The translations under genes were made by a program, and so were the position numbers. A stretch of 64,000 nucleotides of DNA from NCBI GenBank assembly GCA_041488275.1, contig JBGPOY010000003.1:14092-78091 (forward strand), in the 5' to 3' direction. The notes below the pieces were generated by a model. The model searched no databases. It was given only the letters and a program-made list of their open reading frames with translations, and was not told the DNA's origin. Shown piece after piece: positions 7,143 to 63,646 of this stretch (positions within the stretch are counted from its first letter, which is position 1; every line of letters starts with the position of its first letter). This DNA comes from Candidatus Nanoarchaeia archaeon. GTDB lineage: Archaea > Nanobdellota > Nanobdellia > Woesearchaeales > ARS49.

Positions 7143-7270
7143 TCCCCTTGCCCGGATTTGAACCGGGAACCTTGCGGGTTCTGCTGACTCACTGTCATCC
7201 TTGGCGTTGCGCCACGTCGGTGAGTGACTCTCGTCTACAGCCGCACGCTCTGCCGTTGAGCTACAAGGGG
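7143..7270 (-). tRNA. tRNA-Tyr(GTA) with a ~53-nt intron 3' of the anticodon
   Basis: Acceptor CCCCTTG/CAAGGGG carries C1-G72, the archaeal Tyr identity pair. D arm GCTC..GAGC, anticodon stem TGCGG/CCGCA with loop CTGTAG interrupted, T arm CCCGG-TTCAAAT-CCGGG. No encoded CCA. Confidence 0.85.
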
Positions 7271-60216: not shown

Positions 60217-60708
60217 TCACTCGAACAGTGCCGCGACTGCGCTGAAAAGTCCGCGCATCATCCGCCGCGTCTTTGAGAACATCGGTCCGGAATACATGAA
60301 CGCGAAGAGCAGTCCCAGAATGATGAGACTGGCGTCGTAGGTCTGCCGCGCGAAGTAGTCGCACGCGAGCGCGGGGCTGCTCGTGCACGTCAGGAGCAAG
60401 CCAAACTCATCCATAAACAATCCCATGCCGATGCCGAACAACACGGCGGCCACGTTGAACATGCGCGGACGGTTGGTCGTCAGCGCAATCCAGTTCGCGA
60501 TGGCAATGAGGAAAAAGCCGTAATAAAAATGGTGGATATGGTAACTGCGAATGAACAACCGCAGCCAGGACGGACCGTACATCACCGTCATCCGCGAAAC
60601 AATGAACGACAGGCTGAACGAGACGGCGATGAGGAACGGCGTCATCTTCCTGCGTCGGAGAATATCCTCATAGAAGACGCTTCTCAGCTCGCGAATCCAG
60701 TCCAACAT
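60217..60708 (-). CDS. Hypothetical membrane protein whose ATG lies 1 nt after tRNA-Ser(CGA)
   Basis: 163 aa with about four TM helices. The ATG at 60708-60706 follows the discriminator at 60710 after a single T. Confidence 0.55.
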   Translation of the reverse strand: MLDWIRELRSVFYEDILRRRKMTPFLIAVSFSLSFIVSRMTVMYGPSWLRLFIRSYHIHHFYYGFFLIAIANWIALTTNRPRMFNVAAVLFGIGMGLFMDEFGLLLTCTSSPALACDYFARQTYDASLIILGLLFAFMYSGPMFSKTRRMMRGLFSAVAALFE

Positions 60709-60709
60709 A

Positions 60710-60792
60710 CGCCGCCGGCAGGATTTGAACCTGCAGCCCCTTGCGGGAACGGTTTTCGAGACCGTCGCACTACCGGATTATGCGACAGCGGC
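60710..60792 (-). tRNA. tRNA-Ser(CGA)
   Basis: Acceptor GCCGCTG/CGGCGGC, anticodon stem ACGGT/ACCGT with loop CTCGAAA, long variable arm TCCCGCAAGGGGC, T arm GCAGG-TTCAAAT-CCTGC. Confidence 0.88.
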
Positions 60793-60891
60793 ATTGAAAG
60801 TGTGTACATGCGCCACGGAGGCTCGCTCCCTGACGACTGCCGATGTCGCGACCGCCGAGCGGCCTCGGCGTGGATGCGACAGCGGCATTGA
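60780..60891 (-). repeat. 18-nt direct repeat of the tRNA-Ser(CGA) 5' end plus leader, bracketing a 76-nt hairpin-bearing insert
   Basis: atgcgacagcggcattga occurs at 60780-60797 and 60874-60891. The hairpin gccgag-cggc-ctcggc lies at 60854-60869. Confidence 0.8.
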
Positions 60892-60897
60892 GTGTGG

Positions 60898-61047
60898 TCA
60901 AAATTCCGAGAGCGCTCTATTTGTTCCTTGCGCCTTTGCTTTTCTCAGCTCAGGAACGTTCTTTACGGCATTCGCAACGACGACCTGCTTGATGTCTTCG
61001 AACTGCGTAAGACGCGTGTTTTTCTTGGCTTCTTCGGAACTGACCAT
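60898..61047 (-). CDS. Possible 49-aa protein whose ATG lies 1 nt after tRNA-Glu
   Basis: My own translation gives MVSSEEAKKNTRLTQFEDIKQVVVANAVKNVPELRKAKAQGTNRALSEF. It is below the ORF-track cutoff. Confidence 0.35.
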   Translation of the reverse strand: MVSSEEAKKNTRLTQFEDIKQVVVANAVKNVPELRKAKAQGTNRALSEF

Positions 61048-61360: not shown

Positions 61361-61445
61361 ATCAAATCACCTCTTTCACTCGTAAAATGATTATTCTGTA
61401 TATAAATTAAAGGGTTTTTTGAGAGGGCGCAGCGAGGAGAGAAAA

Positions 61446-61527
61446 GACGCCACCGCCCGGACAAACACCGAGACCGCTCGGTGAGCCCGTGCGGGGCAAT
61501 GTACTTTATGAGACGCCACCGCCCGGA
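61446..61527 (+). repeat. Two 16-nt copies of the tRNA-Ser(GGA) 3'-end sequence bracketing a 50-nt hairpin-bearing insert
   Basis: gacgccaccgcccgga occurs at 61446-61461 and 61512-61527. The last 14-15 nt equal 63378-63391 inside tRNA-Ser(GGA). The hairpin caccgag-accg-ctcggtg lies at 61466-61483. Confidence 0.8.
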
Positions 61528-61638
61528 GCACTAGCGTTCAACGCAGACGCTTACAGGCTGTGACATGATCTAAGTTCTTGAAAACACCCGTGGATGGGAG
61601 CTTCCAGGTCTACTGAGTTTCACAGACGAGAAGTTCTA

Positions 61639-62301
61639 TTAAAGTCTTTTGGCCAGCTCTTGATACGCGACAGTGATGTATGGCAGAGCGAGATTAACAG
61701 TCTTTAGGGGAACGTTAATCATCGGATTATGCACGCCAGTATCCCCGAGGAATTTGACTCCGTTGAGTTCTTCCGCAGTCTTTGGCATCAAATACGGCTT
61801 TGTACCCACTGGATGGCTGCTTGCCATGCCAATCATCGCACCCAAGCCAAGAAGGTGTCCCTTAGCATTCTTCAGCGTATCGAGCTGTTTGTCTCGTGCG
61901 AAGACGTGGAAGATCAATTTTTCCAAGATTTTCCGCAACAAAAAGGCCGTGCAATCCCCACTCACTCCTGCGTTGTGCTTCAAATCGCGTAATTCCGAAG
62001 GACAAATCTTCTGAAGCACGGGAAGCACGTCATCAGGAATAACATCCTGCACAACAACCACTTTTGGCGGATATCTTTGTGCGTATTGCTCTCTATATTG
62101 CCGCAAGTACTTCGCCCTCTTCAGAGCCATGCGCAAGCTGGACGCTGTCGGATGACAGCCGTCCTTGGAAAGAGCTTCGACAATCTGTTGCCTCACCTTC
62201 TCACTCTTGAAGAAGCCGCCGTGCCAAAGACGCACCAAAGATGTCGGTACCGAGTTACTCTTCATCTTCTTCCTCATCCACGTACGGATGCTTCTGGACA
62301 T
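61639..62301 (-). CDS. Hypothetical protein with N-terminal wHTH-like segment (islet gene)
   Basis: 220 aa. IVEALSKDGCHPTASSLRMALKRAKYL resembles the neighbouring 86-aa protein. Confidence 0.5.
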   Translation of the reverse strand: MSRSIRTWMRKKMKSNSVPTSLVRLWHGGFFKSEKVRQQIVEALSKDGCHPTASSLRMALKRAKYLRQYREQYAQRYPPKVVVVQDVIPDDVLPVLQKICPSELRDLKHNAGVSGDCTAFLLRKILEKLIFHVFARDKQLDTLKNAKGHLLGLGAMIGMASSHPVGTKPYLMPKTAEELNGVKFLGDTGVHNPMINVPLKTVNLALPYITVAYQELAKRL

Positions 62302-62515
62302 ACGCGTATTTACCGGGCTTCCCTTTCCGCGTAAGGAACTTAGCTCTCTGCAGGGCCTTCATCAGCCCTTTGTCCGTGAAGTTATAGCCGTCGGCTTCCA
62401 AGGCCTCCTGTATCTCGCCGACATTCTTCAACTTCAGAAATTTCTTTGCCTTCCACAACATCTTGAGCGCATCGGGTGCTGTTTTCGCAATCGTCATCTT
62501 CGCACGTACCTCCAT
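62255..62515 (-). CDS. Small wHTH-like protein (islet gene)
   Basis: 86 aa. IQEALEADGYNFTDKGLMKALQRAKFL, with an acidic tail. Confidence 0.5.
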   Translation of the reverse strand: MEVRAKMTIAKTAPDALKMLWKAKKFLKLKNVGEIQEALEADGYNFTDKGLMKALQRAKFLTRKGKPGKYAYVQKHPYVDEEEDEE

Positions 62516-62883
62516 AACTTATTTTCCTCCATTCTTCGCAGTTCCTTGCGGCGCGTCAGGCCGAGCAATACTCCTGACAACGTTGTAATCGGTACGAACA
62601 CGCCTCTGGATTCGAGTGTTCGCTTTACGTCAACAATACCGATAGGCTTGTCGAATTCACCGTCGACAAGAAGTTCGCGAACATAATCAGTTACCGAATG
62701 CTTTGATTTTCCTGCTTCCGATTTGTGCGGCTTCGTGCTTGGTTTGCTCGCGGTTTCTTCAACTTCAGGTGCGGCGTACTCGCGCATGATTCTTGCGACT
62801 TCGTCGTGGCTTCCCTCGACGACAATGGTCGTACCGTTCTTTGTTTTAATGTGTGCTTTTACCATGTGATAACCACCAAGCAA
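62494..62883 (-). CDS. Hypothetical protein with C-terminal wHTH-like segment (islet gene)
   Basis: 129 aa. VDVKRTLESRGVFVPITTLSGVLLGLTRRKEL. Confidence 0.45.
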   Translation of the reverse strand: MLGGYHMVKAHIKTKNGTTIVVEGSHDEVARIMREYAAPEVEETASKPSTKPHKSEAGKSKHSVTDYVRELLVDGEFDKPIGIVDVKRTLESRGVFVPITTLSGVLLGLTRRKELRRMEENKLWRYVRR

Positions 62884-62986
62884 TATCGCGATAGTGCGAT
62901 ATAAAAACCTTTCGGATTACGAGGGTCAGCAGCCAAGAATAAAGCTCACGCTAGAAGAATCGCAGCCTTCTCCCCTCAGAAGTGCC

Positions 62987-63214
62987 TTAGATGTTTTCCA
63001 GCACTGCGACTACAACGGCCATCACTAGGCAGATGAAAATGACTGCTGCGATGTCCGCCGACGGTGCTATCGCTTGCGCGAGTTGCCAAAATGCGTCGAG
63101 TATTTGGGTAATTGCCGACATTTCTTGTTGTGTACCTCCTTTAATGTAGACCTGAGCCAAACTCAAGCTAACCAACGCAGCGCTATGGCAGGCTTTTAAC
63201 TGTTGAGAATCCAT
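62987..63214 (-). CDS. Small hypothetical membrane protein (islet gene)
   Basis: 75 aa with a C-terminal TM helix AAVIFICLVMAVVVAVL. Confidence 0.4.
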   Translation of the reverse strand: MDSQQLKACHSAALVSLSLAQVYIKGGTQQEMSAITQILDAFWQLAQAIAPSADIAAVIFICLVMAVVVAVLENI

Positions 63215-63377
63215 GTCCAGTGTCCACTGTCGAGCAGCAAGAATCTCTACCCTGAACGCCGCACCCTGACGTTAGGGTGAAAACAGGCAGAAAAACGTGT
63301 GGCGTCTATGGTTGAGACAGGACGCTCACCGTAGAACTGGACCAAAACGCGTCAGGCGTTTGTGGTTCAAAATAGAA

Positions 63378-63461
63378 CGCCACCGCCCGGATTTGAACCG
63401 GGAAATCCTTGCGGAAACAAGCTTTCCAGGCTTGCGCCTTACCAGGTTGGGCCACGGTGGC
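63378..63461 (-). tRNA. tRNA-Ser(GGA)
   Basis: Acceptor GCCACCG/CGGTGGC, 3-bp D stem, anticodon stem CAAGC/GCTTG with loop CTGGAAA, long variable arm, T arm CCCGG-TTCAAAT-CCGGG. Confidence 0.9.
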
Positions 63462-63561
63462 ATGAATGTCAGTGTGAAATGCACAGGCGCGCCGGCGCCG
63501 TGCACGCTGCCGCTGGCCTAGCCCGAGCGGACTCGGGCGTGGGTCACGGTGGCATGAATGT
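63453..63561 (-). repeat. 17-nt direct repeat of the tRNA-Ser(GGA) 5' end plus leader, bracketing a 75-nt hairpin-bearing insert
   Basis: cacggtggcatgaatgt occurs at 63453-63469 and 63545-63561. The hairpin gcccgag-cgga-ctcgggc lies at 63521-63538, and an imperfect palindrome at 63480-63504. Confidence 0.8.
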
Positions 63562-63572
63562 GTACTGGCAAA

Positions 63573-63646
63573 TGGCGGTGGGGAGATTTGAACTCTCGAC
63601 CTGCGGGTTATGAATCCGCCGCTCTACCAGGCTGAGCTACACCGCC
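63573..63646 (-). tRNA. tRNA with CAT anticodon (elongator Met or Ile2 type)
   Basis: Acceptor GGCGGTG/CACCGCC, D arm GCTC/GAGC, loop TTCATAA. There are two A:C mismatches, at 31:39 and 50:64. TATA ctttttaaag lies about 25 nt upstream. Confidence 0.75.

Follow-up and report, generated by a model that had tools for sequence, protein, structure and literature searches.

Archaeal elements that encode an integrase, of the SSV/pT26-2 and pNOB8 types, enter tRNA genes almost always at the 3' end, with one case at a 5' end (PMC7253208). Casposons, which depend on Cas1, also target the 3' ends of tRNA genes, produce target duplications of 14-15 bp and can integrate in tandem (PMC5137440). In Caldiarchaeum subterraneum, a 5' fragment of tRNA-Thr(GGU) is followed by a 1,868-bp insertion encoding a putative recombinase and then by the full tRNA; with the insertion comes a 5' part that bears an intron, and a natural population is polymorphic at this locus, which was attributed to a mobile element (Sugahara et al. 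2012, PMC3293823). Here we examine a much smaller arrangement in a 64,000-nucleotide (nt) stretch of DNA from a Candidatus Nanoarchaeia archaeon (GCA_041488275.1, contig JBGPOY010000003.1, positions 14,092 to 78,091), called the window below and numbered from its first letter. There, the 5' end of the tRNA-Ser(CGA) gene is present twice, on either side of a 76-nt insert. With moderate confidence, we propose that these repeats and their insert are one copy of a family of miniature insertion modules, devoid of open reading frames (ORFs), that settle in a site- and orientation-specific manner in the terminal 12-20 bp of tRNA genes of DPANN archaea. We read the module as a mobile insertion, or the relic of one, that rebuilds the tRNA end, rather than as an artefact, an intron or a leader conserved from ancient times. 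The family is widespread and apparently undescribed; literature searches found no description of these short modules.

Three related units in the window

The tRNA-Ser(CGA) gene is intact (60709-60793, minus strand; ARAGORN, and Rfam tRNA with 57.8 bits), and all parts of its unit lie on the same strand. It starts with the inner, tRNA-proximal repeat copy, which comprises 5 leader nt and tRNA positions 1-13 (60780-60797); the outer, distal copy of the same segment lies at 60874-60891. Both match the 18-mer ATGCGACAGCGGCATTGA exactly. The duplication put forward in the sequence-only reading of this DNA is thus a true exact repeat, and the 76-nt insert described there (60798-60873) does start with CCAC-GCCGAG-GCCG-CTCGGC and end with GCGCATGTACACACTT. 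A repeat finder (family D4) lengthens the repeat to 23 nt at 91% identity (60780-60802 and 60874-60896), and similarity continues to about −11 if one indel is allowed. On the coding strand the repeat boundary falls exactly past the 5' strand of the D-stem. The outer copy begins 11 nt past the stop codon of a small upstream ORF. Going from the outer copy towards the tRNA, the insert contains the hairpin H1, GCCGAG-GCCG-CTCGGC (60854-60869; sequence, fold and motif scans), an antisense segment, a second hairpin, H2 (60811-60837; RNA fold), and a G-poor tail that is predicted to be unstructured, CATGTACACACTT (60798-60810). The antisense segment, GCGACATCGGC (60839-60849), is complementary to tRNA positions 11-1, with 10 of 11 pairs formed. 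In the predicted fold the outer copy is paired with the antisense segment around the GC hairpin H1, and the duplex has an energy of −19.5 kcal/mol, which 2.7% of shuffles reach.

A homologous insert of 70 nt (63470-63539, minus strand) precedes the intact tRNA-Ser(GGA) gene (63377-63462, minus; ARAGORN and Rfam), as indicated by alignment, fold and motif. Its parts follow in the same direction: H1, CCCGAG-TCCG-CTCGGG (63522-63537), the antisense segment GGCCAGCGGC (63509-63518), and then H2 and a tail. The flanking repeat (repeat finder family D5) is 22 nt long with 95% identity; its inner copy lies at 63448-63469 and its outer copy at 63540-63561, the latter with a single mismatch, G10 to A. 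Here the predicted fold pairs the inner copy with the antisense segment, and the outer copy occupies the acceptor strand. A joint motif, CCGAGNCCGCTCGG N5-25 GGCAG, had exactly two matches, in the CGA and GGA inserts, against 0.00 expected. Global alignment of the two inserts scored 26, against 8.3 ± 2.0 for dinucleotide shuffles (z = 8.7, 0 of 1000), so that the homology suspected from the letters alone withstands a formal comparison with shuffled sequence. Each upstream duplicate was also said to copy its own tRNA, and the repeats D4 (CGA) and D5 (GGA) bear this out. The outer GGA copy lies about 19 nt past the 3' end of tRNA-Met(CAT) (63555-63646, minus). As this leaves no room for a promoter, Met, insert and Ser(GGA) presumably form a single transcript; the same Met-unit-Ser order is found at locus L112 of the genome survey described below.

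Two features had escaped the sequence-only reading, namely the antisense segment in each insert and a third unit at 61445-61527 on the plus strand (repeat finder family D1, motif scan and duplex energy). This unit sits at a displaced fragment of the tRNA-Ser(GGA) 3' end, on the strand opposite to the other two. Its 17-nt repeat, AGACGCCACCGCCCGGA (61445-61461 and 61511-61527), is the reverse complement of the tRNA-Ser(GGA) 3' end and encloses a 49-nt insert with H1, CCGAGACCGCTCGG (61468-61481), the antisense segment GCCCGTGCGGGGC (61485-61497) and the tail AATGTACTTTATG. The hairpin word CGAGNCCGCTCG recurs once more here (61469-61480, plus). The tail (AATGTAC...) resembles the other two, and ATGTAC / CTGTGC is common to all three. 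In the shuffle test the antisense duplex had an energy of −18.3 kcal/mol, reached by 2% of shuffles. When each antisense segment was paired with each of the three targets, those of the CGA unit and of the third unit were best with their own target (−19.5 kcal/mol each, against −8 to −16 for non-cognate pairs), and the GGA segment gave a tie among targets. Altogether, the three units have nearly the same H1, whereas the flanking repeat and the matching antisense segment belong to each unit alone. All three keep the order of outer copy, GC hairpin, antisense segment, unstructured tail and inner copy.

Short repeats in a metagenome assembly raise the question of an assembly artefact, or of repeats that arose by chance. 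We regard this explanation as practically negligible. A contig from the Joint Genome Institute (JGI), Ga0534153_0000110, fetched through the 163-amino-acid (aa) gene next to tRNA-Ser(CGA), has both 5' units; the same architecture is found in dozens of unrelated assemblies, and one occupied site comes from three separate samples. Moreover, the motif expectation was 0.00 and the similarity of the inserts was never matched by shuffles. In the JGI assembly, window positions 1-21090, with the RNA polymerase and ribosomal protein cluster, lie on Ga0534153_0003418 and positions 21091-64000 on Ga0534153_0000110, which indicates that the window comes from another assembly or from a join of both contigs.

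Recurrence and sharing of the units among DPANN archaea

Species-representative genomes were scanned with a word covering the variable arm and T-arm of tRNA-Ser, which gave 119 loci, nearly all in metagenome-assembled genomes (MAGs) of Woesearchaeota or Nanoarchaeota. An upstream duplication of the 5' end was found at about 16 of about 120 DPANN tRNA-Ser loci. Among the 74 non-Ser tRNAs called by ARAGORN in the same loci, it was scored in four calls. Three of these (L014, L038 and L069) are, by eye, intron-bearing tRNA-Ser genes miscalled as '???' or Tyr, and the single true non-Ser case in those loci is the tRNA-Met of L054. Duplication of the 3' end was found at about 19 of 133 tRNA-Ser loci and also at Glu (4 of 13), Ala (2 of 9) and Met (2 of 19) genes, with repeats of 14-29 nt placed 44-160 nt downstream of the tRNA. 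The 3' units are read on the antisense strand, again with outer copy, one or more hairpins, antisense stretch, tail and inner copy. The orientation of a unit therefore follows the target word, inward from either gene end. This order was held in roughly twenty 5' and 3' units that were read or folded. Roughly 10-15% of the sampled tRNA genes in these genomes carry such a duplication, and tRNA finders silently choose one of the two copies.

Overall, the units measure 46-140 nt, contain no ORF and are flanked by sequence-specific repeats of 12-30 nt; the 5' inserts at tRNA-Met are 178 nt long in L054 and 100 nt in L300-302. A recurrent group, which we call class 1, comprises L024, L026, L041, L045, L057, L077, L112, L116 and the window CGA unit. 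Its first half consists of tRNA positions 1-12, then U(A/C)C(U/A) and a hairpin of 6-8 bp, and its second half of GGUC, the antisense stretch and a G-poor linker of 13-20 nt that leads into the tRNA. Class-1 units, at 46-56 nt, show the same compact order in independent lineages, without traces of element genes. Tandem arrays occur, with three units in L026 and two in L041. In L026 (JAHJSS010000075.1, roughly 1190-1650, minus), the three tandem 66-nt units, of which the third has compensatory hairpin changes relative to the first two, precede a truncated tRNA-Ser copy, which contains two introns and ends after the variable arm, and an intact tRNA-Ser(GGA) lies 23 nt beyond this truncated copy. 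Among about 16 tRNA-Ser genes that have a 5' unit, seven (L112, L026, L038, L062, L103, L119 and the window tRNA-Ser(GGA)) show a 3'-end duplication as well, roughly threefold the base rate.

Conservation of structure was assessed in an alignment of 11 class-1 units. The helix equivalent to H1 is 94% paired, with compensatory changes in five of its six pairs, and the inner part of the helix between copy and antisense also covaries; the covariation score was reached by none of 500 shuffles. In 32 automatically collected units, the antisense match was above 95% of shuffles in 13, against 1.6 expected. The stem formed by copy and antisense has a recurrent defect at position 5, which is usually mismatched.

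Orthologous neighbourhoods were reached through homologues of the 163-aa membrane protein that adjoins tRNA-Ser(CGA). In L292 the tRNA-Ser(TGA) is an empty site with a clean promoter. The orthologous tRNA-Ser(TGA) is occupied in L294, L295 and L296, from three samples, within the same gene order and with a tRNA that differs from that of L292 at 2 nt; the insert measures 44-46 nt and the repeat about 30 nt (−13 to +17). By eye, the L294 insert (Ser-TGA) resembles that of L119 (Ser-GCT), from an unrelated MAG, and the antisense in each is fitted to its own tRNA. Different tRNA genes and genomes also have insert sequence in common: L014 (Ser), L054 (Met) and L300-302 (Met) share a stretch of 31-32 nt with 100% identity, a segment is common to L012 (Met 3') and L020 (Ala 3'), and a hairpin is common to L020 and a D-loop insert in the tRNA-Ser of L062. 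Inside genomes occupancy is sporadic, as in a MAG in which L057 has a unit and L074 has none, and inserts resemble each other inside one genome, not according to orthology. Of the genomes fetched, only L010 keeps the tRNA-Met/Ser(GGA)/Glu/Ser(CGA) order, and it lacks both 5' duplications. Taken together, inserts that are alike at different targets of one genome, occupancy that is patchy and an orthologous site that stands empty are the signature of inserted DNA that is probably mobile, and not of an old conserved leader.

The sequence-only reading had proposed either independent insertions by one mechanism directed at the 5' part of tRNA-Ser genes or an ancient feature maintained by selection. 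Independent insertion is favoured by the homologous inserts at three window targets, each with its own duplicated target, by the related inserts at other tRNA genes and in other genomes, and by the empty and occupied states of tRNA-Ser(TGA). The range of targets was, however, drawn too narrowly: 3' ends are used as well, in the opposite orientation, and so are Glu, Ala and Met genes. Ancient maintenance is unsupported in view of the sporadic occurrence within genomes, the absence from L010 and a likeness that is within-genome rather than orthologous.

The start codon of the 163-aa membrane protein directly adjoins the 3' end of tRNA-Ser(CGA) (60708-60709). Its homologues stand beside a tRNA-Ser in 5 of 7 other neighbourhoods checked, the isoacceptor varying (TGA, GGA) and the two genes being divergently oriented (L292, L294, L297, L300); in L298/L299 and L304 there is no tRNA nearby. 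L304 (JGI 3300043179, positions 1-162) has a phage-integrase-family gene about 1.3 kb from the homologue, and no tRNA in the 3.5 kb fetched.

Transcription, neighbourhood and origin of the units

Several tRNA genes of the window have TTTAAA-type TATA boxes 22-25 nt upstream. None was found before either repeat copy of either window serine tRNA, nor about 25 nt before the inner copy, and a promoter within the window inserts was rejected on this ground. In six class-1 loci a canonical TATA box stands 23-25 nt before the outer copy; the insertion therefore lies within the transcribed gene. With no TATA box at either copy in the window, the module is probably transcribed there as a long 5' leader within a precursor, and it would be lost once RNase P, or an enzyme equivalent to it, cuts the 5' end of the tRNA. 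In the Met inserts of L300-L302 and L054 a TATA box belonging to the insert precedes the inner tRNA copy by exactly 24 nt; neither the window units nor the class-1 units have one.

A module inside the transcribed region, with promoters before the outer copy and a structure conserved with covariation, might instead be a functional leader or trailer of the precursor tRNA under selection that signals processing, offers RNase P or tRNase Z a minihelix mimic, aids folding or works as a switch. Its layout of copy, antisense and copy does resemble a switch, and at both gene ends the extra copy always stands beside its antisense partner and the real tRNA end always behind an unstructured spacer. Nevertheless, we consider such a role improbable. 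The units are sporadic inside genomes and absent from relatives, and their likeness follows the genome and not orthology. At the third window unit, the adjoining tRNA fragment is displaced and non-functional, and this unit, like the 3' units, is antisense to the tRNA, which counts against a purely RNA-level role. In addition, predicted equilibrium folds often prefer unproductive pairing, and no Rfam family matches. Indeed, around the units and seven related loci only tRNA models match, even at E ≤ 10, apart from one snoRNA match far below threshold (60881-60933; 17.8 bits against a gathering score of 44 bits, E = 5.8). A C/D-box or other guide small RNA was discarded, as no C/D boxes were seen by eye and no Rfam match was credible, and a known ribozyme or riboswitch was discarded for want of any Rfam match at E ≤ 10. 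The simple idea of decoy sequestration is likewise unsupported by equilibrium folding: the outer copy often takes the acceptor strand in the predicted ensemble, and scrambling the antisense alters this in some loci only.

Promoters at canonical distance from the outer copy also invite the view that this copy is the true, or an alternative, 5' exon, insert and inner copy forming a tRNA intron removed by the bulge-helix-bulge (BHB) endonuclease. These archaea have many non-canonical tRNA introns, including in the D-loop. The first 12 nt of DPANN tRNA-Ser, GCCNNCGUGGCA (e.g. L112, L041 and L119), form a quasi-palindrome that is perfect in the window tRNA-Ser(GGA) (GCCAC-C-GTGGC), and in several other genomes two copies of this 12-mer can form a symmetric BHB-like motif with cuts between positions 4 and 5. 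However, that pairing is weak, with two G-U pairs in a 4-bp core, and competes with a helix of 10-11 bp between copy and antisense; we therefore regard it as a by-product of the quasi-palindrome, which may also explain why the tRNA-Ser 5' end is a hotspot. No BHB was found at either 5' unit of the window, in either arrangement and at any splice position that restores the tRNA, although the scan recovered the tRNA-Tyr intron used as a control. The inner copy gives a complete tRNA without splicing (ARAGORN, Rfam), the G10A of the outer GGA copy would break the D-stem, and neither the 3' units nor the third window unit can be introns. Splicing is thus a very improbable account. The control gene, tRNA-Tyr(GTA) (7143-7270, minus; Rfam 55 bits), was missed by ARAGORN and has an intron of about 55 nt after position 37; the BHB scan placed its 5' splice site after position 37 and its 3' site after position 93.

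The neighbourhood of the units raises a stronger rival, namely that they are decayed relics: kilobase-sized elements with a tyrosine integrase would have entered the tRNA end by recombination between attachment (att) sites, and internal deletion would have left both ends. An island of 1.85 kb (61528-63374, minus), delimited by repeats and by comparison with L010, stretches from the 3' end of tRNA-Ser(GGA) to a displaced copy of this end, 15-17 nt in length. This copy forms the far boundary of the island, and the 17-nt repeat found there also bounds the third small unit. L010 lacks the island, and its Ser(GGA)-Glu spacing is 44 nt. The four ORFs of the island (220, 86, 129 and 75 aa) are without family matches, and none is a recombinase by Pfam, PHROG, NCBIfam or PADLOC. 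Most of the 236 homologues of the 220-aa protein (40-48% identity) belong to bacterial MAGs (Nitrosomonas, Sulfuricaulis, Zixibacteria, Patescibacteria). The homologues usually stand behind a gene of 90-150 aa, in a cassette of 2-3 genes, so that the arrangement looks like a small, horizontally moving cassette. The 220-aa protein, whose family is widespread, is not a recombinase and was set aside as a candidate for the enzyme that would move the modules.

Apart from the shared 17-nt boundary, relics would agree with the textbook outcome of att-duplicating integration at archaeal tRNA gene ends, with one case at a 5' end (PMC7253208), and with the tRNA-Thr 5' fragment of Caldiarchaeum, which an inserted element separates from the full gene 1.8 kb further downstream (PMC3293823). 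A kilobase-sized duplication of a tRNA end also exists in our survey (L053), and in L300 and L054 the unit itself supplies the TATA box of the inner copy, as expected of an attP carried by an element. Although this is the main rival, we judge it unlikely. Random decay predicts varied leftovers, whereas class 1 shows one compact order and size (46-56 nt) without traces of element genes. The hairpin is maintained by compensatory change, whole short inserts are common to different genomes and tRNA types, the tandem arrays are made of complete units, and an antisense target copy is not a known feature of integrase arms. Furthermore, no full-length element with a class-1 core was found in viral contigs or in 0.9 Mb of sequence.

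Mobility in the strict sense is what we infer from these patterns, and several observations weigh against it. The Pfam hits listed for the called genes, roughly in window 32-71 kb, and those of the island contain no recombinase, transposase or Cas1; the genes of the neighbourhood serve housekeeping functions. Neither a free nor a full-length form was recovered from 2.9 million viral contigs (IMG/VR), where all 47 matches to the class-1 core were chance matches in coding sequence. A covariance model of the 11 class-1 units found no copies in 0.9 Mb away from tRNA ends or tRNA-Ser, although the same model also misses the divergent GGA unit of the window and the third unit. A metagenome scan with the window-type motif, too GC-rich and unspecific, gave only chance matches, with none of at least 120 stretches showing the architecture. 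The antisense match is imperfect and sometimes weak or absent (L045, L014, L297), and among similar targets the own target is not always the best partner. In equilibrium folding the outer copy, and not the true 5' end, often pairs with the 3' acceptor strand. A harmless insertion would then depend on the order of co-transcriptional folding, outer copy and antisense of 5' units pairing first. The duplication has a variable left edge, between 0 and about −16, and the duplicated block sometimes takes in up to about 16-20 nt of locus-specific flank. The duplication may be a true target-site duplication or may combine att-type identity with remnants of older tandem units, such as L041 and the comparison of L054 with L056 suggest. 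Finally, the best protein identity of the neighbourhood to any database entry is 67%; with no close relative of the window organism in the databases, recent movement in this genome is indirectly deduced.

Possible mechanism and comparison with known systems

Duplication of the tRNA end means that the gene survives the insertion. As a best guess of low certainty, drawn from analogy, we suggest that pairing of the outer copy with the antisense segment gives a stem imitating the double-stranded target, and that a small folded single strand might integrate through a tyrosine-type recombinase supplied in trans. Integron attC sites and the attP(+) site of CTX phage are folded single-strand sites, and their product has direct site copies outside and an inverted copy inside. 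The single-strand route would also explain why the stem has a recurrent defect at position 5, why only the structure of the terminal hairpin is conserved, and why tandem arrays occur. A guide-like role of the antisense would agree with the data almost equally well, and so would transposition by staggered cuts with a long duplication of the target. Indeed, the variable left edge (0 to −16 nt) would be compatible either with staggered-cut transposition or with att identity together with older tandem remnants.

More tentatively still, the modules could represent a new class of ultra-small, non-autonomous integrative elements of DPANN archaea, about 50-140 nt long, that move as folded single strands or as guide-bearing molecules, a proposal that we hold possible but doubtful. 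The stem of target copy and antisense would itself name the tRNA gene end as the integration site, the antisense would be re-templated from, or co-adapted to, each new target, and the system would be an archaeal counterpart of integron attC or CTX-type single-strand recombination. Accumulation at gene ends could then give rise to the tRNA fragments, leaders and non-canonical inserts of these lineages. If the modules are mobile, they would be among the smallest site-specific elements known and would point to a recombination activity in DPANN archaea that recognises tRNA gene termini, with the built-in antisense target copy as a simple, readable determinant of specificity. They offer a concrete route by which tRNA genes gain 5' fragments, 3' fragments, partial copies in tandem and leaders that are long and structured, and they bear on the debate over the origin of split, fragmented and intron-rich archaeal tRNA genes.

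The modules share with the integrase elements of archaea (PMC7253208) insertion at a tRNA end, direct repeats of that end, a rebuilt tRNA and tandem occupancy. The single 17-nt boundary repeat used by both the island and the third small unit is a further likeness. Of the features of an att-flanked element, the direct repeats of the tRNA end are present and a recombinase gene is absent from the 49-76-nt inserts. Unlike those elements, the modules measure 46-140 nt, encode neither an integrase nor any ORF, and contain, besides a conserved hairpin, an antisense copy of the target; many lie at the 5' end, with 5' units biased to tRNA-Ser, whereas a 5' location is rare for integrases (one case, PMC7253208). 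The Caldiarchaeum locus resembles the window in having an upstream 5' fragment of the same tRNA and inserted DNA between this fragment and the intact gene. Here, in contrast, the inserted DNA is 76 nt long and non-coding, the copies are identical or one base apart, and an antisense segment is present. Casposons have in common with the modules the targeting of tRNA 3' ends, long target duplications and tandem insertion, but they are large, self-synthesising elements with terminal inverted repeats and a Cas1 gene, none of which the modules have.

MITEs (miniature inverted-repeat transposable elements) and other non-autonomous elements are, like the modules, small, non-coding, structured, present in multiple copies per genome and in need of an enzyme in trans. 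The usual terminal inverted repeats are missing from the modules (the ends of the CGA insert, CCACGCC... and ...CACACTT, are not inverted repeats), the flanking duplication is sequence-specific and 12-30 bp long instead of 2-10 bp, and both target and orientation are strict. With archaeal BHB introns and split tRNAs the modules share the presence of extra sequence in tRNA genes of the same lineages, and hairpin modules are shared with D-loop inserts (L020, L062). No BHB is possible at the window units, however, the tRNA is intact without splicing and the units lie outside the mature sequence. The integron attC and CTX-phage attP(+) sites differ from the modules, which have a stem of 11-12 bp, a tRNA gene end as target, no cassette genes, archaeal hosts and no IntI or Xer-type enzyme that we could find. 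As a resemblance only, the two have in common an imperfect hairpin that mimics the target, defects in the stem (at position 5 in the modules), a variable terminal stem-loop kept in structure and tandem arrays, and the module likewise consists of direct copies of the site with an inverted copy inside.

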